DNA of 29,718 nt from Candidatus Micrarchaeota archaeon (GTDB lineage: Archaea; Micrarchaeota; Micrarchaeia; Norongarragalinales; SBBD01): positions 1-29,718 of the forward strand of contig JBBSVW010000079.1 of the NCBI GenBank assembly GCA_038046605.1, in the 5' to 3' direction. The notes beneath the pieces were generated by a model. It searched no databases, had not been told where the DNA came from, and saw nothing but the letters and a program-made list of their open reading frames with translations. Each line of letters begins with the position of its first letter. Within the stretch, counting starts at the first letter, position 1. The position numbers and the translations under genes are program-made. Below, one piece after another: positions 3,601 through 27,638 of the stretch.

Positions 3601-5082
3601 TCAGATTTTCCTAATTATCCCTCTTGCCGCATCAACTTCCACAACATCCCCATCCTTCAATATTTTATTCGCATTCTTCACACCGACAATGCAGGGGATG
3701 TTAAGCTCGCGGGAAACAATTGCCGCATGGCACATTATCCCTCCTTCATTAGTGATGATTGCCGCAGCCTTCTTCATCGCCGGCACCAAATCCGGGGAGG
3801 TTGCCGCAGAAACCAGAATATCTCCCTTTTCCATTTTTACCATATCCGCCATGACATTGATTATTTTTACCTTTCCATTCGCCTTACCCGGGCATGCCGG
3901 CATACCCCTAAGCTTTGTTGCTTTTGCATCAATCTCGTCCGTTGCAAATTCGCATTTGGAAAATTCCTCCTTTGCCTCCTTCCCCAAAATGATACTCTTT
4001 CCGCTTCTTTCCACAATTAAAAGCGAGCAGGCGATCCTCTCCTTTGCCATCCCCTTAAACTTGCCTGGATCTTCCATCACATTTTCCATTTCCTCCATGA
4101 AAAGATACATCGATTCCAGCGACGTAAGGCCTGCCCTCCTTCCGATTTCCACCTGCACCTCCATGTTGTTCCGGGTTGCCTGCTGGAATTCATGCTCGCG
4201 CGCCCATTTGTAATAGCCCATGTTCCTCACATGGTCGAATACGGAAATTTCCTCCACGCTTAATTTGAGCAATCGGCAAACCCTGGTGAATTCCTCCGAA
4301 ACCATGCGCTCGTAATCGTCCAATAAGGCTATTTCCTCCTCGATTTTTGCCCCCAATTTTTCCTCAACTAGCTTGGCATAATGATCAATATCCCAGCCAA
4401 CCAAATTGCTGTAATCATACGAGAGCCATTCGAAATCGGCCGCCATCCTTTGCAATTCCTCCCCAAATTCCCTCCTGATTTCACTTGCGCCATCAATTAC
4501 TTTTTCCTTTGCCTTCCGCGCAATCTCAAGAACCCTCTTTTCCTGCGCCTGCGTCTTAAGCCTGTAGGGCGAGCGGGTCAATGCAAGGAGGTAATCGGCG
4601 AATTTTTCCGGCTCCCGCGCAGTTTTCTCCCGAAGGATTTCCATCATCCGGTTGTATAGCGGCGTATCTTGCTGGTAGCCCATGATGATAAGCGAGGCTG
4701 CGTAGCTGTACGTTTCAAAAAAGCGCTTGTGAAATTCATCCATATGCCCAATTAGTTCATCACTCCCAATTCCACTAAGTTCTTTTCCCGCATATTTTTC
4801 GCTGAAAGCATTCAGGAGCTTTCCTTTCTGCAGGCTTTCCCTGAAAAATGCAAAAACACGGTAGGGGTTCCGCATTATTTCCTCATTCAGGAATTGTGCG
4901 GTTTTCCGCAGCTCCGCTTCCGGATAATAATACTCCGTTTGGCCATCCTTCCAGTAGCTGTACGATGATTCAATTGCGCTCTCCGGCAAGATTTTTGAAA
5001 ACCCCTGCACGGATGCCTCGATAACCACGCTGACAACTGAAGGCGAATAAGGCCTATGGCTCCAAATCCTGGTGTATCTCAT
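3601..5082 (-). CDS. PEP-utilising enzyme mobile (His swivel) domain protein with a long helical N-terminal region
   Basis: C-terminal 'LRGMPACPGKANGKV...GDILV...TSPD...AIITNEGGIMCHAAIVSRELNIPCIVG...DGDVVEVDA'. No ATP-grasp or PEP-binding barrel is recognisable. Confidence 0.85.
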   Translation of the reverse strand: MRYTRIWSHRPYSPSVVSVVIEASVQGFSKILPESAIESSYSYWKDGQTEYYYPEAELRKTAQFLNEEIMRNPYRVFAFFRESLQKGKLLNAFSEKYAGKELSGIGSDELIGHMDEFHKRFFETYSYAASLIIMGYQQDTPLYNRMMEILREKTAREPEKFADYLLALTRSPYRLKTQAQEKRVLEIARKAKEKVIDGASEIRREFGEELQRMAADFEWLSYDYSNLVGWDIDHYAKLVEEKLGAKIEEEIALLDDYERMVSEEFTRVCRLLKLSVEEISVFDHVRNMGYYKWAREHEFQQATRNNMEVQVEIGRRAGLTSLESMYLFMEEMENVMEDPGKFKGMAKERIACSLLIVERSGKSIILGKEAKEEFSKCEFATDEIDAKATKLRGMPACPGKANGKVKIINVMADMVKMEKGDILVSAATSPDLVPAMKKAAAIITNEGGIMCHAAIVSRELNIPCIVGVKNANKILKDGDVVEVDAARGIIRKI

Positions 5083-5315
5083 TTAACCACTTCAATAAAT
5101 ACTACTGAATCAAATTACAACTATATTCAAAATGGCCATTTTCCCCACATCCATTTCGAATGATTTCACGGCCACATCGGTATTCCGTCCGATGCAGTAT
5201 CCCTCCCCCAGCTCAATAGTGCCAATATCCCCAAAAATAAAAACAGCTCCATAGAAACCCCTCAAGCCGCAATGCAGCTCTCATAGTGGTATAACTAACC
5301 TTCCTAATTAGAATT

Positions 5316-7834: not shown

Positions 7835-7941
7835 GTTTTCTTTCCAGCGGAGCCGTTCGCCGCTTTCTTTTTCACCGGGCAGACAAAGTCTGCGCGGCCC
7901 CAAAGAACTTAAGTTCTTTTGGGAAAGAAAGGGGCAAGGCA
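7835..7941. repeat. Structured palindromic element, copy A (intergenic, rps24e-rps27ae)
   Basis: Core 7874..7923 (ACCGGGCAGAC-aaa-GTCTGCGCGGCCCCAAAGAAC-ttaa-GTTCTTTTGGG) sits inside CTTTCTTT/AAAGAAAG inverted repeats and matches 12535..12638. Confidence 0.85.
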
Positions 7942-7942
7942 G

Positions 7943-8239
7943 TTATTTCTTACCTTCCTCCGCCTTCTTTTCCGTCTTTGTTCCGCGCGCCCTCTTGTAT
8001 GCCGGCTCCTTCAATGCGCCCTGCGCATTATCATAAATCCTAACATATACCTTTGCATACTTGGTCCCAAACGGATGGACCACCCTTTCAATGATTATCT
8101 CATCGGCGGCTGCCGTGAACTGCTTTTGAATTTCACTCATCAGATGCTTCCTGGATGGCGTTTCCTTCTCCACCGGAAGCTTAACTATGATCTCCTTCCT
8201 CCCAAGCAATTTGTTTTCCTTGTTTTCCAATATTTCCAT
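7943..8239 (-). CDS. rps24e: 30S ribosomal protein S24e
   Basis: 'MEILENKENKLLGRKEI...TPSR...FGT..AKVYVRIYD...EP'; GAGGGG SD-like sequence before ATG8239. Confidence 0.93.
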   Translation of the reverse strand: MEILENKENKLLGRKEIIVKLPVEKETPSRKHLMSEIQKQFTAAADEIIIERVVHPFGTKYAKVYVRIYDNAQGALKEPAYKRARGTKTEKKAEEGKK

Positions 8240-8324
8240 ATGAACCCCTCGTTTTTTAGAATTGTTTTCCGAATGCACCAGATTACCTTGGTTTAATATC
8301 GTCCATTCATTTTTTCAAAATAAC

Positions 8325-12109: not shown

Positions 12110-12490
12110 TCATCCAATATCCACGTGCCCCTTGCCGCGCATCCCAATTGTCCTAACTTTTAGCTTTTTGAGCTTCGCCTTAAGCTCCTTATCCAATGTC
12201 GCAACGTAAAACTCCTCCGAATTGTTCTTTTCCGAATACTCCAAAATAATTTCGTCGGTTTTTCCCTGCACCTTCACTATTTCGAATTTGCCCCTAAGCC
12301 TATTGATGAACGAAAGCATCGTCCTAGCGTACATCCTTTCCCTGCCCCTAAGCGATCTCAATTCCGCAAGTGTGCTCGAAAGCAGTATGAATTTCACACC
12401 CCCGGCAAGCGCCCTGTCTATCTCCTCGAAAATATCCACATGGTTCGTGAATGGTATCAGGAGGAAATTCGTATCCAAAAGAACTTTCAT
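12110..12490 (-). CDS. PIN-domain protein, archaeal Fcf1/Utp23-like (VapC9-like)
   Basis: 'MKVLLDTNFLLIP...VDIFEEI', 'EL..L', 'D', 'VATLDKELK'; GGTGG before ATG12490. This family normally precedes rpoE'. Confidence 0.88.
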   Translation of the reverse strand: MKVLLDTNFLLIPFTNHVDIFEEIDRALAGGVKFILLSSTLAELRSLRGRERMYARTMLSFINRLRGKFEIVKVQGKTDEIILEYSEKNNSEEFYVATLDKELKAKLKKLKVRTIGMRGKGHVDIG

Positions 12491-12514
12491 ATCCACCACT
12501 TGATAATAAGAAAA

Positions 12515-12788
12515 CGGGCTCGGCGGGATTTCCATGCCTTGCTTTTCTTTTGCAACCGGGCAGAACACTGTTCTGCACGGCCCCGAAGAACTTTCGTTCT
12601 TCGCGGAAAAGAAAAGCGGTGGCGCCGCAAAAGAAAACGGATTTCATTTGCATATCAAAACAAACTGCTTCCCAAAGAGGGGGAGCGAGCAGTCTGCTCA
12701 AGGGGGATGCTTCCCCCGACGCAGACATTTGAACCCACGGCCTTCTGGTTAAAAGCCAGACGCTCTAGCCAAGCTGAGCTACGAGCCC
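12515..12788 (-). tRNA. tRNA-Lys(UUU) with a 199-nt intervening sequence in the T-loop (best fit 59/60; intron 12529..12727)
   Basis: 5' part: GGGCTCG TA GCTC AGCTTGGCTA GAGC G TCTGG CTTTTAA CCAGA AGGCC GTGGG TTCAAA. 3' part: T CCCGC CGAGCCC G (12528..12515). Joined, they give a complete 75-nt cloverleaf. Confidence 0.93.
12535..12638. repeat. Structured palindromic element, copy B (inside the tRNA-Lys insert)
   Basis: Core 12555..12606 (ACCGGGCAGAAC-act-GTTCTGCACGGCCCCGAAGAAC-tttc-GTTCTTCGCGG) lies between GCTTTTCTTTT and AAAAGAAAAGC inverted repeats; homologous to 7835..7941. Confidence 0.85.
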
Positions 12789-12915
12789 GTTAATTGCGAA
12801 AAAGGGGCATCGATCCCATTTAAATTTGGGAAGGCATGCCCCCCACCTCCTAAATTAGCAGGGCAACATTTAAAATAAACGCATCAATAAGCATTCACGT
12901 TGTTTGGGTGATCAA

Positions 12916-19553: not shown

Positions 19554-19730
19554 TGGTAATGCAAATTAGTGGCGGGAGGTGGAGAGGGGAAATTCCCAAA
19601 ATTTTCAGACATTTATTGCCAAATAGCCAGATGCCTTTTGCCATACTTGCCCCTTTTCTAAAATTGCCCATTCCCCCCCTCATAACTTATTGTTTTAAAG
19701 CATCCTCCCCAAAACAAATTGGGTTGTCCA

Positions 19731-22700
19731 ATGGGCATAGGTGAATCCTTAAGCGAATTCTACTCAAAAATAGAGGAGGGATACTATACTCTCCTAGACA
19801 AGCTAAAGGATGCAGGCTTCCCAATTTACGATTTGTTTGTGACGCCCCTTGAAAGCAAGGGCATCCCCTCCCTTCCGGTGCTTGTTTTGCTGATGCTTTT
19901 GATCGTCGGAGGCATCGCATTTTTCGCATTCTCCAGCCAGCCAGTTTCGCTAAAGCTATCCGTCGAATCGGATGATGGCACTGCAATTGATGGGGCATCC
20001 GTCATTTTGACCTCGGGCGATTTTCGCAAGGAGGCCCTCACTTCGGATGGAGTTGCCGAATTCACAAATCTGCCAAAAAACAAGGCTGCAACAATCACGG
20101 TTGAAAAGGAAGGATACGCGCCAGTATCCCGCGACATTATACTAGGACAACTCACTTCCGTAAAAATAATCATGGAAGCAGATGCTGGGGTACTCATTGA
20201 ACTATTGGTTGTAGATTTCCAAGGTTTAGCCCTAGAAGGCGTTGCAATTGATTATACATATGCCGACAAGTCCGGGGAGGAAATAACCCAAAGCGCGGTA
20301 ACTGATGCCTTGGGGAAAGCAGCAATCAATATGCCCGAAAAAACCCAAGTTACCGCAAATGCGCTTCTTTCAGGCTACGAGCCAAATTCTATAACATTCA
20401 CCCCGGAAAAGGGGCAAACAAAACGCATCGTGCTCAAAAAAATCGAGGCAACCCCCGAACCTCCGCCAAGTTCTGACAAATCGCAGCTTGAAATCCAGGT
20501 GAAGGATGACTCCGACGAATCTGCAATCGAGGCAAACCTTGAGATCTACGACCAGGATACGCAAGAGCTTTTGAAGGAGGCAAGGACAACTAGGGGGATA
20601 TACAAGACTTCTGAATTTTCCGTGGGCGCAAAGATCAAGGTCGTTTCCAAATCTGTCGGCTATGAGGATGCCATCAAGGTAAAAACGCTCCTGCCAAAAA
20701 CCATCCTTCCAATTCGCATGGTCCGGCAAATTATCTTCACCCCCCCAAGGCCCCCGACCAATGATTCAGTCATTTCCGTTTATAATGAAAAAGGCTCCCC
20801 ACTCTCATCTGAAATCCGCATGTGGGAATACCTCGAGGAGGCAAATTATACCCTCCTAAAAAAGCTCACCGGCTCCGAACTTCGCATGCCCCTTAACCCT
20901 GAGCGCTTGCACTATGCAACCGCCTGGAAGGAGGGCTACCTTCCTGCAAAATCCCCATTATTCATCGGCTCTGCTTCCATCAATCTAACGCTCATCAAGG
21001 GCTCCGCAAACAATTCGGCAAACATAAGCGTAATTGTGATTGACGAGGATGCAAAGAAAATAAGCGGCGCAACAATTGCCTTCTTCGATGAGCTTGGCGA
21101 CCAGGTCGCGCCCTTTGACCTCAAGACTGATTTTGCTGGAAAGGTGCGGGTGAAATACTTCCCATTCGGGGTATACAGATTCCTTGCCTCAAAATCCCCG
21201 CAAACAGGGTTTGTGATGGCAAATACAGCGGAAACAACTGAGATAACAATAACCCTTGGCTCCCAGCACGGCACGCTCGAAATTTCCGCAACAGATTGGA
21301 GCGGGAATGAAACTGTTGCCGAGTTCCAGGCAAGCATTGCCGTTTCGGGGGATAAGAATTCGACCTATTCTGCCAGTTGCACTGCCTTCTCCGGCTCGTG
21401 CAGCGTGGATGTGAGGGCTGGCCGTGACCTTGTTGTTGCAATTTCAGCTCCAGGATACGAGGCTGCCTCGCAAGTTGTAAAGCCCATCCCGAATGCCGCA
21501 AAGATAGTCAAATTCAAGCTCATGGAACTTGGCGCATCCACACAATCCAAAATAGCCCTTGACCGTGTTGTTGACCTAAATTACAACGGAACGGAAAACC
21601 TGGTCGCAGGATCGCTTTACGTTGCCCTAATTGATGTTTATGCCGGCAATTCAACTGATTATTCGGGCGTATTTGTCCGCCTTGAGGATGAGGCGGGAAA
21701 TGAAATTGCGCACATTGTGAATTATTCCTGGGAGGGCGAAATTCCCGATTCGGTAATCGGCTCGATGCAAATAAAAAAGGCAAACCCGTGCGTTACCTCC
21801 TTTGAATACCCTCCCCAGCGCATGCAGCCCCTTTCATGGCTTGATGCGAAATATTCCTTTGGGGGCAGCGCTAAAGTTGCCTATCTCTTCAAGGTAGATT
21901 CAGGCCTGCCCGCATCATCGCTCAAAATAAAATACCGATCCTATTCCGTTATTGGCAGGAATTTCTTCCGTGATCCGCTCGATGCAATACTTGGCGAAAA
22001 GGAGGAAACAGGGCAGAAGGAGTGGTGCGAAGCGCAGGCAAAAAGCGCGTCCTTTGCAATTGAGGTTTGCGGCGGCATATCCCAATCCTGCTGCGCTTCC
22101 CGCGATCCATCAAATGGCGGCCTTTGCAATGACAATTTGCAGTGCAAAAAGGGGGATGGAATTGCAACTGGCATTTGCTCCCTTCCAACTGCCTGCGGCT
22201 CATCTAGCTATTTCTGCACCGACAATAATGTCTGCTGCGAACGCAACGGCAACAAGGCCTGCATCGATTCTTCCAAATGTTCCGATGAAAACAATCGGGA
22301 ATGCAACCCCGGTTGTGAATCTACCTCCGAATTATGCAATTCTGCAGGGCCAGTAAATGAAGCTGGCAAATGCGGCGATGAGGATTCACTTTGCGGATCC
22401 GAAGGCGCCATTTGCTGCATCTCCGGCGACAAATGCGAGGCCAATTTGAAATGCTCGCCATTGCAAAACCGGTGCATTGCATGCGGTGGACGGTACCAGG
22501 CGTGCTGCATCTTCCCTCCTACCGATCCCAAAATCGCCTGCAGGGATGACCTTCAGTGCAACTATGGTGTATGCTCCCCTCCGCAGCTTTGCGGCGCCTC
22601 AAAGGAAAAATGCGTCGGAGGCGAGGTTTGCTGCAATGTTGGCGATAACAAGGGCGCCTGCACTGCGGCTGATGATTGCAAGGCGCCGGTTAAATGCCCT

Positions 22701-25700
22701 GTTTGCCCAAGCAACTTTTTCTGTGATTCGACGAATCTGGATAAACCATCATGCGTTGATTGCAAAACCAATCCATCAGCCTGCGGCTTTTGCTCCCTTA
22801 ACGACAGTTCAACTGCCTGCAAAAACGGAATTTGCCTCTTAGCGCCTGGAAAGGACTATGGCCTTTGCACCTCCTGCGGGAACCAATCCCAGCCATGCTG
22901 TGCAAACAATGCCTGCAGCTCCCCAACCCTGCTCTGCTCCAATTCAACAAACAAATGCGAGATTTGCGGCACTGTCTCCTCCCAATGCTGCCCTGGAAGC
23001 GTGTGCGGTGGCAACCTTACCTGCTCTTCAACAAATGTTTGCGAGGCATGCGGAATGAAAGGCCAAACCTGCTGTGGAAATGGCGCCCAATGCGTGCAGG
23101 CAAACACCGTTTGCTCGAGTGAGGATGGCAATGTTTGCGCATTTGGCAACAAGGATTGCAATTCCGAAAGCTGCCTCTCATTTGATTTTGAGCAAGTGCA
23201 GTGCGATCTTTCAACAAAAAGCTGCGGCAAGGTGACTGGCACAAATGGTTTTGTTGCCCACTCCCTTAAAAATTGTGGCTCCAATTGCTCGATTGGCAAC
23301 CTTGTGGTCTCTTATGATGTAGAGAATTTGGCTGATACTTACCCTGGAGAGCTAACAATTGAAATTTCAGACATCAAATCACTTGAGCCAATTTCCCTCT
23401 TTTCCGGCGGCAACAAAATCACCCAGCTGGACCATGGTAATTCCAGGATAAGGATTCCAATCCCCGATTCCTTGTGGCTAAAGGGAAAAATCAACTTCAG
23501 GCCCCTTGCCAAAAACCCGCGCGTAATCCTCTCGTTCACATTCGATAATGGCAATTCGGAAATAGTGCTTCGGCCATTTGTTTCCGTCATCAATCTGCAG
23601 GCCCCAATCCCCCCAAAGAATCTGCCTAACCTTTTTGCCTGTGAAAAACTAGAGCTAAAAGCCGTGATTTACCCTGGCACAACAACTCCCGTAATTGAAA
23701 GCTCCTGCGACAAGATCATTTTCCAAGTGGATCCCATTTTCCCGGCTGATGCAATACCATTTGATGATTCGGGCATGTCAATTTGCGGCACCTATGACCT
23801 GCTGTTTGGAACGGCTGCAAACTCCTCTATCTACAATAATTGCTTTGATTATTCCGCATCGCCCGGAGGAAAAGCCCTGCGCTATTGGCCTTCCAAGAAT
23901 TCTGCATGCCCCATTTCTCCAGTTGGCAATATGGTGCAAGCTCCCAATGTGACAATGGGAGTACGCTGCCTTGCATCTGAAGGGGCAACACGCGGGCTGG
24001 AAAAGAAAATCCAAATCATAATCTCGAATTATTCCCTGCTCGACATTCCGGCTCTTGACATTTCGACAATCAATTACAAGAGTTCGCTTCTCCCGCTGCA
24101 GGCTCTTCCCCCCTCATTTTACCTCTTCAATGATGAGCAATATTCTCCCCTCCGGCTGGTTTACGCTCTTAACAACCGTGTGCGCACCTCTGATGACAAC
24201 GCATTTAATCGCAAGGACAATTTCTGGCTTGCTGAATATTCCGGAACCGGCTCCTTGTTCACGCGCGCTGCAACTGCAAGCCAGCTCATCCGAAAATCGG
24301 AGATCGCATCCCTCATTTCCTGGGATTCCTCCAAGAAGGCATCGCCAAAAATCTATTTCGATGATTCCTCCGGAAGCCTTGCCAAAATGCCCTCGCAGGT
24401 TGCTGCAATTTCCCAAAAGGAGCCATTGCCAAAGAGCCTTGCCAGCAAACTTGTGACCAAAACGCTTGGCAGGATAAATCCGGAACTAAATTCACTTAAA
24501 AACGCATTCGATTCATGCAAAACCAGCTGCGAATCCGATGTTGGCACTTGCAAGAGTGATTGCCCAAGCGGGGATGATGGATTTGCATCAGTTGCGAAAA
24601 GTTTGGCATGCGGGCTGGCTTGCGATGCCAAGAAAAACCCATGCCTCATGCAATGCTCCTCTAATTATGCCAATGGAGTTGATCTGGCCTTCTCAAAAGG
24701 AATTGTCTCCGAATTCAAATCCATTTCCACCGATGTCGCCTCCAAAACCGCATTCCGGCGCAGTTTTGAGAAATCAATTTTCTGCACAAAGGCAGAGCCA
24801 AATGAGGCGGATACGCAAAACCGCGCCATTTGCAGGGGATCTGCCGCCGATTGGCTTGGCATAAAGAAAAACATTGAAACCGATTCGCAGGCGTGCACCT
24901 TCTGCAAGGAAGTTTATGCGAGTTCCTATGGGGCTCCTGCTTCCGACAACGATGATGTCGATTCCTGCGACATAAGGTGCCAACCGGATGAATCTGCGGA
25001 GTGTTCGGCGCTTGGAAGCACGGGCTACTGTGCAAGCATTACCGCTGGTGAAAGCTATATCAATTCAACCGGTGCCAACAATATCTGTGCAGATGGCGAT
25101 GACGACCCCGCTACCGATGATGGCTATGGCTGCCTATATTCGTGCAATGCAAAATCCCCCAAGCTTGGCGATTACTGCGGCATGCCTTCCGAATGCAGCG
25201 CCTGCTCTCCAGATGGCAAGAAATTCACCGAATCAATTGTCAGCTATGATTATGTCTGGGAAAACACCTCCCGCCTCTTCGAAGTTGTGATCCCATCCGG
25301 AGTAGAAGCGCAGGATGCGATGGTTCCCTACAAATATTTCGTTTCCTCTCCAAAAGCGCAACCGTTCACATTCTCGGCTGTACTTCCACTAACCGCCAAC
25401 ATGGTTTACAACCAGCTCAACAAGGCTCCATATTTCAACCAAATCGACAACAACCTGATTTCGATTGGGGATATGCCGGATGCCTGCAAAGTGCGCCAAG
25501 GGATTTATCTCCTGCAAACCAAGACGCATAACGGAATTGCCTTCTATTCCGAATCATCGGATTCATCTGAGATAGCGTCGCTTTCACCACTTTCCTTAAG
25601 CGACAACTATCCGGAATCGCAAAAGAGAGGGGAGCAGGACTATTGCGGCAACGTCCCCGCCTGCAACCTCTTCGACCCGTATGATGTTGAAAGCTGGAAG

Positions 25701-26429
25701 CCCAGCATGAAGAGCTATTTCAATAAAACGACTTATCCCTCAAGATGTTTCACATATGAGTGGCCGATAATACCGGATTCTATGAAACTTGCTAACGAGG
25801 ATGATAAAATTTGGATGGGTTTAATGCCGTACGGAGGCACAAGAACAGATTTCAATAGATACATAACCGAGTCAGTTTCCGTATTCTCGGCCCGCTTAAT
25901 CCTTACAATTGCATTTGGCTTAGCGGGAGGCGTTCTTGGAGGAATTTATCTAAGTGGTGTAGCCGCATTCTCGTCGGGATTATCTGTATACACAATATCG
26001 ACTTTAGGTGCAATTATTTTGGGTAGTGCAGCAGGTTCTTTGGTTGGTCGTGGCACTTCCGAGCTAGTTTTAAGCCCCCATCCGAAAAAATGGATATATG
26101 TACAACCAGAATTCTATTCCTTCCCAGTTAGCCAGCAGTTGCCTACCGATCTCGAATCAGCGTACTTGCTTGGTCAATTAATTTATACCGGCGGAAAAGC
26201 ATGCTTTGGCTGCAATGACGTGCCATGGACTGTCCATGCTTATGCAGTATCACCATATGATATTTACAAATATCCAAATGTATTTGGAACCGAGTGGCAA
26301 TATGCTCATAAGAAAACTAGCCTAGATCCCGACGACATCGACACCGTAACAATTGATGATTTCGGGGATCAGAATTTGCAATTCCATATTTGTGGTAAAG
26401 ATATAGGTGAAACCGATTGCTACAGTTAA
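19731..26429 (+). CDS. Giant (~2230 aa) N-terminally anchored surface protein: prealbumin/carboxypeptidase-regulatory-like repeats, Cys-rich repeats, C-terminal Gly-rich hydrophobic hairpin
   Basis: TM segment 'VLVLLMLLIVGGIAFFAF'; repeated 'V.D..G..I.GA.V....T...G.A....GY' units; 'CG...Q.CC....C...L.C' repeats; 'LILTIAFGLAGGVLGG...LGAIILGSAAGSLVG' near the C-terminus. Confidence 0.9.
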   Translation: MGIGESLSEFYSKIEEGYYTLLDKLKDAGFPIYDLFVTPLESKGIPSLPVLVLLMLLIVGGIAFFAFSSQPVSLKLSVESDDGTAIDGASVILTSGDFRKEALTSDGVAEFTNLPKNKAATITVEKEGYAPVSRDIILGQLTSVKIIMEADAGVLIELLVVDFQGLALEGVAIDYTYADKSGEEITQSAVTDALGKAAINMPEKTQVTANALLSGYEPNSITFTPEKGQTKRIVLKKIEATPEPPPSSDKSQLEIQVKDDSDESAIEANLEIYDQDTQELLKEARTTRGIYKTSEFSVGAKIKVVSKSVGYEDAIKVKTLLPKTILPIRMVRQIIFTPPRPPTNDSVISVYNEKGSPLSSEIRMWEYLEEANYTLLKKLTGSELRMPLNPERLHYATAWKEGYLPAKSPLFIGSASINLTLIKGSANNSANISVIVIDEDAKKISGATIAFFDELGDQVAPFDLKTDFAGKVRVKYFPFGVYRFLASKSPQTGFVMANTAETTEITITLGSQHGTLEISATDWSGNETVAEFQASIAVSGDKNSTYSASCTAFSGSCSVDVRAGRDLVVAISAPGYEAASQVVKPIPNAAKIVKFKLMELGASTQSKIALDRVVDLNYNGTENLVAGSLYVALIDVYAGNSTDYSGVFVRLEDEAGNEIAHIVNYSWEGEIPDSVIGSMQIKKANPCVTSFEYPPQRMQPLSWLDAKYSFGGSAKVAYLFKVDSGLPASSLKIKYRSYSVIGRNFFRDPLDAILGEKEETGQKEWCEAQAKSASFAIEVCGGISQSCCASRDPSNGGLCNDNLQCKKGDGIATGICSLPTACGSSSYFCTDNNVCCERNGNKACIDSSKCSDENNRECNPGCESTSELCNSAGPVNEAGKCGDEDSLCGSEGAICCISGDKCEANLKCSPLQNRCIACGGRYQACCIFPPTDPKIACRDDLQCNYGVCSPPQLCGASKEKCVGGEVCCNVGDNKGACTAADDCKAPVKCPVCPSNFFCDSTNLDKPSCVDCKTNPSACGFCSLNDSSTACKNGICLLAPGKDYGLCTSCGNQSQPCCANNACSSPTLLCSNSTNKCEICGTVSSQCCPGSVCGGNLTCSSTNVCEACGMKGQTCCGNGAQCVQANTVCSSEDGNVCAFGNKDCNSESCLSFDFEQVQCDLSTKSCGKVTGTNGFVAHSLKNCGSNCSIGNLVVSYDVENLADTYPGELTIEISDIKSLEPISLFSGGNKITQLDHGNSRIRIPIPDSLWLKGKINFRPLAKNPRVILSFTFDNGNSEIVLRPFVSVINLQAPIPPKNLPNLFACEKLELKAVIYPGTTTPVIESSCDKIIFQVDPIFPADAIPFDDSGMSICGTYDLLFGTAANSSIYNNCFDYSASPGGKALRYWPSKNSACPISPVGNMVQAPNVTMGVRCLASEGATRGLEKKIQIIISNYSLLDIPALDISTINYKSSLLPLQALPPSFYLFNDEQYSPLRLVYALNNRVRTSDDNAFNRKDNFWLAEYSGTGSLFTRAATASQLIRKSEIASLISWDSSKKASPKIYFDDSSGSLAKMPSQVAAISQKEPLPKSLASKLVTKTLGRINPELNSLKNAFDSCKTSCESDVGTCKSDCPSGDDGFASVAKSLACGLACDAKKNPCLMQCSSNYANGVDLAFSKGIVSEFKSISTDVASKTAFRRSFEKSIFCTKAEPNEADTQNRAICRGSAADWLGIKKNIETDSQACTFCKEVYASSYGAPASDNDDVDSCDIRCQPDESAECSALGSTGYCASITAGESYINSTGANNICADGDDDPATDDGYGCLYSCNAKSPKLGDYCGMPSECSACSPDGKKFTESIVSYDYVWENTSRLFEVVIPSGVEAQDAMVPYKYFVSSPKAQPFTFSAVLPLTANMVYNQLNKAPYFNQIDNNLISIGDMPDACKVRQGIYLLQTKTHNGIAFYSESSDSSEIASLSPLSLSDNYPESQKRGEQDYCGNVPACNLFDPYDVESWKPSMKSYFNKTTYPSRCFTYEWPIIPDSMKLANEDDKIWMGLMPYGGTRTDFNRYITESVSVFSARLILTIAFGLAGGVLGGIYLSGVAAFSSGLSVYTISTLGAIILGSAAGSLVGRGTSELVLSPHPKKWIYVQPEFYSFPVSQQLPTDLESAYLLGQLIYTGGKACFGCNDVPWTVHAYAVSPYDIYKYPNVFGTEWQYAHKKTSLDPDDIDTVTIDDFGDQNLQFHICGKDIGETDCYS

Positions 26430-27426: not shown

Positions 27427-27458
27427 TTAGGGAAAGGTTTTACGGCAATAAAAAATGA

Positions 27459-27613
27459 TAGCCCCGGGCAGATTCGAACTGCCGTCCTAGGCTGGCCCCG
27501 AAATGATCGGGAAAAACAATTTTGCTTTCCTCTTAAAATTTCACCAGAGGCCCATATCCTTGACCATTGCCTAAAGATTGCCGGATGCGGCAATCCTTCT
27601 AGACGACGGGGCT
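27459..27613 (-). tRNA. tRNA-Gln(CUG) with two introns: 32 nt in the D-loop (15/16; 27567..27598) and 50 nt at canonical 37/38 (27494..27543)
   Basis: Exons AGCCCCGTCGTCTAG / TGGTCAAGGATATGGGCCTCTGG / AGCCTAGGACGGCAGTTCGAATCTGCCCGGGGCTA give a 73-nt cloverleaf with A1-U72. The 37/38 intron forms a clear bulge-helix-bulge (CTCT/GGGG, GAAAT/ATTTC). Confidence 0.95.
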
Positions 27614-27638
27614 ATTATCGAATTGTTACAGAAAAACA

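Follow-up and report, generated by a model that had tools for sequence, protein, structure and literature searches.

How can a transfer RNA gene that is interrupted in its T-loop by 199 nucleotides (nt) of highly structured DNA still serve the cell that carries it, and where did the interrupting sequence come from? Both questions are raised by a 29,718-nt stretch of Candidatus Micrarchaeota archaeon DNA (GenBank assembly GCA_038046605.1, contig JBBSVW010000079.1, positions 1 to 29,718; hereafter the window), part of a genome of 1.64 Mb in 106 contigs with 46.8% G+C and 90.7% completeness (G000). We confirmed that the window holds a split tRNA-Lys(UUU) gene on the minus strand at 12788-12515. 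The gene is probably a working, single-copy one with an intron spliced by the endonuclease EndA, recently copied from an intron of the same make-up ("A-linker-R", after the repeat modules described below) in another tRNA gene.

The split tRNA-Lys(UUU) gene and its splice junction

Read on the minus strand, the gene opens with a 61-nt exon 1 (12728..12788) that covers tRNA positions 1-59, in which the acceptor strand GGGCTCG is followed by TA, the D arm GCTC-AGCTTGGCTA-GAGC, a G, the anticodon arm TCTGG-CTTTTAA-CCAGA with the anticodon UUU, the variable loop AGGCC, the T-stem strand GTGGG and the T-loop sequence TTCAAA (UUCAAA in the RNA). The 199-nt intron (12529..12727, minus strand) separates tRNA positions 59 and 60, and the 14-nt exon 2 (12515..12528, minus strand) supplies U60, the 3' strand of the T stem (CCCGC), the 3' strand of the acceptor stem (CGAGCCC) and the discriminator G. 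The tetranucleotide AAAT is present at both exon/intron boundaries. Once the 199 nt had been cut out in silico, ARAGORN called a canonical tRNA-Lys(ttt), the stems of which we checked by hand, and the gene identity, coordinates, insert length and 59/60 position proposed in the first-pass annotation of this sequence were thereby upheld. The same annotation had anticipated that standard tRNA scanners could miss the gene, and they did: ARAGORN found 0 tRNAs in the window and left the tRNA-Lys(UUU) gene uncalled in intron mode too, while the Rfam tRNA model matched 12730-12788 alone (33.5 bits against a cut-off of 29), bridging the T arm by a local gap.

Both exons are conserved among related genomes. 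Over 62 nt, exon 1 shows 100% identity to its uninterrupted counterparts in three genomes of the same genus (G001, G002 and G005), and exon 2 is identical to the 3' ends of intact congener genes. The check for a second tRNA-Lys(UUU) that had been advised at the outset was made on the 90.7%-complete genome in five ways (ARAGORN with and without introns, the Rfam tRNA model, a scan for T-loop splices and a scan for UUU anticodon arms), none of which found one. The codon AAA accounts for 9976 of the 19366 lysine codons (52%) in 513 long open reading frames (ORFs) of the genome. With a single tRNA-Lys(UUU) found and AAA holding that share of the lysine codons, the gene would have to work, and we regard it as almost certainly functional.

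At position 59/60 the two exons and the intron can form a near-canonical bulge-helix-bulge with helices of 5, 4 and 5 base pairs (bp) and bulges of 3 nt and 2 nt. Its 4-bp central helix pairs the T-loop bases U54-A57 (UUCA) with UGGA near the 3' end of the intron; the 3-nt 3' bulge A-A-U60 lies between this helix and the 5-bp T stem, and the 5' bulge A58-A59 leads into a 5-bp outer helix formed by the first intron bases, UGUCU, with AGGCA. The relaxed bulge-helix-bulge drawn in the first reading was thus recovered with its UUCA/UGGA helix and both of its bulges, and the hairpin-rich character ascribed to the insert is borne out by the fold of the 274-nt precursor, which reaches -128.5 kcal/mol (z = -6.7) and was matched in stability by 0 of 200 shuffles. 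Constraining this fold to the cloverleaf and the bulge-helix-bulge costs 4.4 kcal/mol relative to the free optimum, and the remainder of the intron is a self-contained folding domain.

The genome also encodes enzymes suited to such a junction. It has one EndA, encoded on contig C20, a protein of 388 amino acids and of the epsilon2 type, whose residues 14-388 align end to end with the three-unit epsilon2 EndA of ARMAN-2 (PDB 4fz2; E 3.5e-126) and whose nearest public relatives, at most 89% identical, belong to metagenome-assembled genomes of Candidatus Micrarchaeota / Norongarragalinales; the ligase RtcB is encoded as well (E 2.4e-171). The insert thus combines the features of an archaeal protein-spliced tRNA intron, namely a cloverleaf, a bulge-helix-bulge and an EndA with a ligase encoded in the same genome, and we infer that it is excised. 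No group I or group II intron was matched in Rfam, either in the window at the gathering score or in 12400-12900 at E<=1, where only the tRNA was returned, and 199 nt without an ORF are too small for a self-splicing intron of either group. No C/D box motifs were seen in the intron by eye.

In the processing pathway that we propose, a precursor of about 274 nt would be transcribed from the gene, and the UUCA in the 5' half of the T-loop would pair with UGGA to create, together with the T stem and the outer helix, the bulge-helix-bulge. The three-unit epsilon2 EndA would then cut both bulges, after A59 and before U60, and RtcB would ligate the exons of 61 nt and 14 nt to give a tRNA of 75 nt, and would probably also circularise the 199-nt intron.

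Make-up and source of the intron

When the precursor was compared with its own genome by BLAST, the insert proved to be a mosaic whose repeats also lie within or next to other tRNA genes of G000. On the minus strand, and with approximate module boundaries, the intron begins with module A (12674..12727; 54 nt), an outer stem GUCUGC/GCAGAC around the hairpin GGGGGA/UCCCCC, followed by GAGCAG/CUGCUC and a run of C. A linker and the left part of module R/B follow (12608..12673), containing GAUAUGCAAAUGAAAUCCG, UUUUCUUUUGCGGCGCCACCGC and UUUUCUUUU; then comes module C (12555..12607, limits good to about 2 nt), a 53-nt block nested within the UUUUCUUUU/AAAAGAAAA hairpin loop. The last segment, AAAAGAAAAGCAAGGCAUGGAAA (12529..12554), forms the 3' end of the intron and contributes UGGA to the central helix, GGCA to the outer helix and AA to the 3' bulge.

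The age of the insert can be judged from the genus, which comprises 7 genomes of 84-91% completeness; these genomes are related, so counts across them are not independent events. The T-loop insert at tRNA-Lys(UUU) is absent from 5 of the 6 congeners (G001, G004, G005, G006 and both copies in G002 are uninterrupted), and the sixth, G003, carries a different insert of 88 nt. The gene downstream of the split tRNA in the window (12110..12490, minus strand; 126 amino acids; Pfam PIN_9, E 4.9e-18) encodes a PIN domain and serves as a synteny marker: the same PIN gene lies 3' of tRNA-Lys(UUU) in G000, G001, G002, G004, G005 and G006, with 64.6-73.4% identity between G000 and its congeners. An order-wide test covered 20 loci, two of which had no exon-1 match and one of which was not Lys(UUU); among the 16 genomes with an identifiable tRNA-Lys(UUU), 7 carry an insert there (199, 173, 112, 88, 57, 45 and 43 nt), and these inserts are unrelated in sequence and differ in length. 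We infer that the T-loop intron of the G000 gene is a recent gain in the lineage of this genome. The initial suggestion of an insertion domesticated as an intron fits these data, both in the uninterrupted genes of the five congeners and in the composition of the insert from mobile-looking repeats. At the G003 locus (L005), a script picked out by pairing a candidate second 3' exon about 390 nt downstream of the T-loop.

The closest relative of the intron lies in a different tRNA gene. Outside G000, it is best matched by the T-loop intron of G005 tRNA-Met(CAU), which is 146 nt long and identical at 136 of 146 positions (93.2%), and the sole difference in length between the two is one 53-nt block, module C. 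The A-linker-R intron is found again, its 3' end identical, in a class-II tRNA gene on G005 contig C21, so that near-identical introns are shared by tRNA genes of different identity (Lys, Met and class-II). Within G000, module A of the Lys intron is about 97% identical to module A of the tRNA-Met intron, with a different R variant. The T-loop of the Met locus is itself polymorphic in the genus, being empty in G002 and G003, filled by a module-D insert in G001 and filled by module-A inserts in G000 and G005.

We propose that a complete A-linker-R intron, of the kind that also occupies 59/60 in tRNA-Met(CAU) and in further tRNAs of the genus, was copied from a Met-type gene into the Lys gene, and that the 53 nt of module C would have been added afterwards in the hairpin loop. 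Recombination or template switching is the probable route of the copying, with the short shared flanks (GGGTTCAAAT to the left, AAATCCC to the right) as the sites used. The AAAT at both ends, which the first-pass annotation had read as a possible 4-bp target duplication, is real; a fresh insertion as its cause has given way to the intron of another tRNA as the likelier source. The type and the position of the intron are documented ones, and what sets it apart is its length, its apparently recent and traceable copying and its make-up of structured repeats.

T-loop introns and structured repeats across the genome

The Lys intron belongs to a large set. All 58,697 candidate T-loop inserts of the genome were cut out by script and the products fed to ARAGORN. 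Hand reading of the 35 resulting matches led us to accept 19 distinct genes, the others being one gene in 3 alternative registers, 3 duplicated 3' exons lying downstream and 10 chance matches. The 59/60 inserts of the 19 genes measure 54-199 nt, some of the anticodon calls being uncertain: tRNA-Lys UUU has the longest (199 nt), and the other 18 (54-186 nt) are those of the C27 gene (186 nt), tRNA-Met CAU (143 nt), the C55 gene (142 nt), tRNA-Ala UGC and tRNA-Pro GGG (141 nt each), the C70 gene (140 nt), tRNA-Phe GAA (136 nt), tRNA-Gln UUG (125 nt), tRNA-Gly CCC (118 nt), tRNA-Glu UUC (110 nt), tRNA-Ser GGA (100 nt), tRNA-Leu CAG (93 nt), tRNA-Val CAC (85 nt), tRNA-Asn GUU (84 nt), tRNA-Gly GCC (81 nt), tRNA-Asp GUC (80 nt), the C68 gene (63 nt) and tRNA-Val GAC (54 nt). 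Archaeal tRNA introns are given as shorter than 100 nt in the available part of a review (PMC4033280), a length by which the whole G000 set is long and the Lys(UUU) intron extreme. The description of the insert as unusually long therefore stands against the literature; within G000 it loses its force, the intron lying merely at the upper end of the 54-199 nt range.

The splice motif recurs across this set. The central helix has 4 bp in 11 of the 19 T-loop introns, 3 bp in 5 and at most 2 bp in 3, whereas each of the three downstream duplicate 3' exons, where no splicing is needed, offers 1 contiguous bp, a contrast that speaks for selection on the motif at junctions that require it. Most of the other T-loop introns of G000 are closed by the same kind of end, GGCAAGGC-N-G(G/A)AAA. 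Without introns, ARAGORN found 8 tRNA genes in G000, and 19 more need a T-loop splice; the Rfam tRNA model gave 15 matches above its cut-off, and most tRNA genes of the genome carry one to three long introns. Standard tRNA finders thus miss about half of the tRNA genes, routine annotation gives a badly incomplete tRNA set, and codon-table and completeness estimates of such genomes are consequently biased.

Module A, of which nhmmer found 9 copies in G000, was matched by BLAST in 11 of 68 genomes from the order (1-11 matches per genome): it occurs in all 7 members of the genus, in two other genera of the family and in two isolated outliers. Among 30 copies, 9 begin 0-2 nt from a tRNA discriminator, 5 lie at T-loop position 59/60, 2 stand antisense against a tRNA 5' end and at least one is inverted between duplicated tRNA 3' ends. 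Its structure is conserved: in an alignment of 27 copies from 9 genomes, 96.9% of the cells pair, compared with 46-64% in slid controls, and 4 of the 6 pairs of the outer stem have undergone compensatory changes. In addition to the G5A/UC5 hairpin, a second covarying stem (columns 33-36/42-45) overlaps the outer stem (columns 2-7/35-40), and since both of the overlapping stems covary, module A may form a pseudoknot or alternative folds. Copies of the module are up to 98% identical in genomes whose coding genes are about 65-74% identical.

The other parts of the intron recur as well. With nhmmer, the segment of linker and R/B is matched 16 times in G000, in most cases within or next to other tRNA genes, and short-word BLAST found about seven copies of module C at about 80% identity, including one at 7864-7930 of the window, with relatives of the module sitting in the corresponding hairpin loop of other elements; nhmmer iteration with module C or with the 35-nt 3' end of the intron returned the query alone. 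Against Rfam, the intron matched no family at E<=1, and module A is likewise without an Rfam family. The window itself contains an intergenic R+C copy (7840-7940, minus strand), consisting of GCCTTGCC, a TTTCTTT hairpin with module C in its loop, and GGCGAACGGCTCCGC; it is placed in reverse orientation, with the stop of the ORF at 7943-8278 on one side and a small zinc-ribbon gene (CPKCG...CGKCG) on the other, and its module C is about 80% identical to that of the intron.

Many of the modules are bracketed by direct repeats. A search of G000 for exact repeats of at least 13 nt lying 40-500 nt apart gave 126 pairs, the longest of which we read by hand. This reading showed module A, D or C enclosed by perfect direct repeats, 17-31 nt in length, at 10 sites outside tRNA genes and at 6 ends of tRNA genes. 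The non-tRNA sites, several of them at gene starts or ends, are C3:16616-16698 (18 nt), C16:6126-6285 (17 nt), C76:3089-3198 (29 nt), C55:24847-24957 (24 nt), C42:3953-4070 and 4982-5160 (28 and 24 nt), C9:8676-8805 (24 nt), C23:63639-63846 (31 nt), C73:31535-31711 (23 nt) and C79:39335-39521 (26 nt). At the five tRNA 3' ends, C57:10077-10248 (19 nt, with an A-R insert), C68:6014-6123 (19 nt), C89:36687-36905 (18 nt), C26:10931-11031 (20 nt) and C9:22964-23179 (19 nt), the gene is followed by the insert and then by an exact second copy of its last 18-20 nt; at the one 5' end (C9:50879-51065, 24 nt), a tRNA-Thr(UGU) gene is preceded by a copy of its own first 23 nt. The distal 3'-end copies are usually preceded by the GGCAAGGC intron-end module and have no splice helix. 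All inserts are non-coding and 47-200 nt long, and the pattern recurs in G002, G004, G005, G009, G010 and G044. In G001, module D lies within a duplication of about 31-45 nt over the start of the PIN gene (G001:C73, locus L003, about 650-800), with ATGCRCGTTTTGCTGGACACGAACTTCCT present twice.

Taken together, modules A, R and C and the related module D appear to be small structured repeats that act like mobile DNA in this genus. Module A resembles MITEs (miniature inverted-repeat transposable elements) in being short, non-coding and dispersed in many copies. Terminal inverted repeats were not found in the module, whose paired segments are internal (columns 2-7/35-40 and 11-16/25-30 in 27-30 copies) and whose two ends lack complementarity, and in place of a fixed short target duplication there are repeats of 17-31 nt; at the Lys intron, AAAT alone is repeated. 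The Lys locus does not look like an integrase-type insertion either, with no second copy of the 3' exon there and no Phage_integrase match in G000. Because the modules are flanked by repeats of each different target, the repeat must come from the target and not from an attP site, and repeats that are long, variable and target-derived fit neither a classical MITE nor an integrase att site. Searches of the 90.7%-complete genome for RVT_1, Cas_Cas1 and Phage_integrase gave 0 matches each, IS200/IS605 transposases being outside this search.

We put it forward only tentatively that the intron has newly arisen from mobile elements, small and structured, that make up a hitherto undescribed family (modules A, D and R/C) in Micrarchaeota of one family. 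Such elements might insert where a tRNA gene is single-stranded or has a boundary (T-loop, D-loop, mature 5' and 3' ends) and at other gene ends, with target duplications of varying length. A 4-nt duplication of AAAT would perhaps yield an intron that EndA can splice, and one of 17-24 nt an intact tRNA with a spare end; the machinery might be something other than the known reverse transcriptase, Cas1 or tyrosine integrase. We hypothesize that breaks at exposed positions of tRNA genes could be filled around an inserted module, in which case two T-loop breaks would give AAAT...AAAT, and one break in the T-loop with another at the gene end would give a duplication of 17-20 nt and an intact gene.

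If this reading were true, it would provide a direct, DNA-level route for the arrival of archaeal tRNA introns. How non-canonical introns arrive in archaeal tRNA genes is an open question, stated as such in the accessible part of a preprint on Asgard archaea ("how they arrive remains open"; 10.64898/2026.10.13.758758), and the genus offers a natural series at syntenic loci, from an empty site through different modules and an intact gene with a duplicated 3' exon to a complete intron related to that of another tRNA, which makes the question testable by comparative and population genomics. The repeat family and its bearing on intron arrival are a more novel lead than the intron itself. Literature searches on Micrarchaeota tRNA introns with repeats, on DPANN EndA and on MITEs, target duplications and tRNA returned no description of the modules; the first of these gave one match, on group I introns, and the portion of PMC12397907 at hand contains no passages on position or taxon.

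Competing explanations and known systems

Several points weigh against a working gene with a copied intron. Transcription through the intron, its cleavage and the ligation of the exons are all predicted from sequence, and the bulge-helix-bulge is relaxed on its 5' side (and on that side only), where the bulge has 2 nt instead of 3 unless a U-A pair opens. Five T4 runs, as read from the sequence, could weaken read-through of the intron. The proposed direction of copying, from Met to Lys, rests on presence and absence in a few genomes; the high identity of the introns could stem in part from constraint on the repeat family; and the R part of the G000 Met intron differs, so that an extra recombination has to be assumed. 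No mobility enzyme was found among the families searched, and no public contig from two samples spans the whole intron.

The copying itself is challenged by a scenario in which the intron was born in place, a repeat having inserted after the tRNA with duplication of its last 17-20 nt and the proximal 3' exon having later been lost. A matching intermediate exists at the orthologous Lys locus of G002 (L023, G002:C42, about 1671-2000), where an intact tRNA is followed by a 108-nt insert ending in GGCAAGGCGGGAC, a second CAAATCCCGCCGAGCCCGT, module A and the PIN gene; the repeat is 19 nt long and lies mid-contig, and the locus forms an empty/filled pair with those of G004 (L006) and G001 (L003). 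Comparable intermediates are present in G000 itself (C57, C68, C89, C26 and C9) and in G009 and G010, and module A, which starts at the tRNA discriminator in 9 of 30 copies, follows A59 in the Lys intron as if 14 nt had been removed. Such a removal would, however, have to be precise to the nucleotide and to have occurred independently in at least five introns that start with module A or D. The G002 insert, moreover, consists of modules D' and R, as against A, R and C in the G000 Lys intron, and module A follows exon 2 in G001 and G004, whereas in G000 the stretch from exon 2 to the PIN gene is free of modules. As a complete intron of 93% identity already exists in another tRNA gene, copying is the simpler course, and we consider birth in place unlikely.

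Less probable still, in our estimate, is that the gene is a pseudogene disrupted by the insertion, with tRNA-Lys(UUU) lacking or obtained elsewhere. DPANN archaea rely on their hosts for many functions, the genome is only 90.7% complete and splicing is a prediction, all of which leave some room for this view. It is opposed by the two exons, which are unchanged relative to intact orthologs, by the bulge-helix-bulge, which is good here and missing from the distal junctions that do not need one, and by the 18 other tRNA genes, single isoacceptors among them, that share the architecture; the genome encodes EndA and RtcB, and AAA makes up 52% of its lysine codons.

An artefact of assembly, by which exon 1 and module A were misjoined to R, C and exon 2 through the repeat at 12609-12634, or part of the locus was lost, is slightly less credible again. 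Public k=31 contigs from two DNA samples break within the intron at that repeat, which has 16 nhmmer matches in the genome, and none crosses it, so the contiguity of the locus depends on the original assembly, the match and complementarity of the exons, synteny and the G005 homolog. These point away from a misjoin: the same contigs cover both exon/intron junctions with 0 mismatches in the two samples, exon 2 pairs perfectly with exon 1, of which the genome has only one such copy, synteny with intact congener loci holds on the upstream side and, downstream, for the PIN gene, and the order A-linker-R is contiguous in an independent assembly (G005 Met). A contig joint from 12555 to 12619, with 14 other letters between, was set aside as another copy of the repeat without module C and not a variant of the locus.

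Least likely of all is an old intron, ancestral in the order and repeatedly lost in most congeners, which would account for the inserts at the Lys(UUU) site in 7 of 16 genomes of the order but not for their differences in length and sequence, for the presence within the genus of only one other, of a different type (G003), or for the position of the nearest relative, 93% identical, in another tRNA, the flanking gene being about 73% identical.

The feature has close counterparts in work of which parts were available to us. The epsilon2 EndA of ARMAN-2 cuts a 13-nt intron with a relaxed motif at 59/60 of pre-tRNA-Cys(GCA) in vitro (PMC3239211), so this kind of feature is already known; ARMAN-2 (Candidatus Micrarchaeum acidiphilum) shares with G000 the phylum, the 59/60 site, a relaxed bulge-helix-bulge in the T-loop, the EndA type and heavily disrupted tRNA genes. 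The introns differ in length (13 nt against 199 nt, although longer ARMAN introns are possible), and the G000 intron is composed of dispersed repeats and has the better motif, with both bulges. The "intron transposition" of a 2010 study, known to us through passages of PMC4090602 and PMC4033280, likewise involves near-identical introns in different tRNAs that imply recent copying. There the phylum and the EndA type are different, whereas in the G000 genus the copies are all at 59/60, are 5-10 times longer and have parts that also occur outside tRNA genes between long direct repeats; the intron-transposition mechanism is given as unknown (PMC4090602).

Links between mobile DNA and tRNA genes are also on record in sources of which we had portions. 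In Caldiarchaeum subterraneum, tRNA-Thr(GGU) is disrupted by a 1.8-kb element that bears a recombinase (PMC3293823), a case that resembles ours in the heterogeneity, at the level of a population or genus, of one tRNA locus, in the tRNA fragments duplicated next to inserted DNA and in the attribution of intron gain to mobile DNA, and differs from it in that the inserts described here are non-coding and 47-200 nt long. The MITE-like small-RNA elements of Pyrobaculum calidifontis (PMC6009581), like prokaryotic MITEs in general, are short, non-coding, multi-copy, structured and flanked by target duplications; module A differs from them in its internal stems, its variable repeats of 17-31 nt and its lack of C/D boxes. 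The repeats of tRNA 3' ends that bracket foreign DNA at C57, C68, C89, C26, C9 and in G002 bear a likeness to the integration of viruses and plasmids, the G000 inserts differing in being tiny and without an integrase and the Lys locus in having only AAAT repeated. Archaeal viruses and plasmids integrate into tRNA genes and in doing so duplicate the 3' part of the tRNA. Such integration is alluded to in the available text of PMC3239211.

Three further features of the window deserve mention. Upstream of the tRNA, about 30 nt from its 5' end, the heptamer TTTAAAT (12818..12824, minus strand) is a possible TATA-like archaeal promoter element. In intron mode, ARAGORN called a "Lys(ttt)" gene at 27457-27614 (minus strand), which we read by hand as a tRNA-Gln(CUG) with two introns and not as a second Lys(UUU): its acceptor stem and T arm equal those of the tRNA-Gln(UUG) of G000, a CUG anticodon loop is readable, and the introns placed by hand lie in the D-loop (about 32 nt) and at 37/38 (about 50 nt). 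Brute-force application of ARAGORN to this gene gave 368 calls, split among Glu (97), Gln (86), Arg (84), Gly (34), Lys (22) and others. Between the two tRNA genes, the plus strand carries an ORF of 2236 amino acids at 19719-26429.

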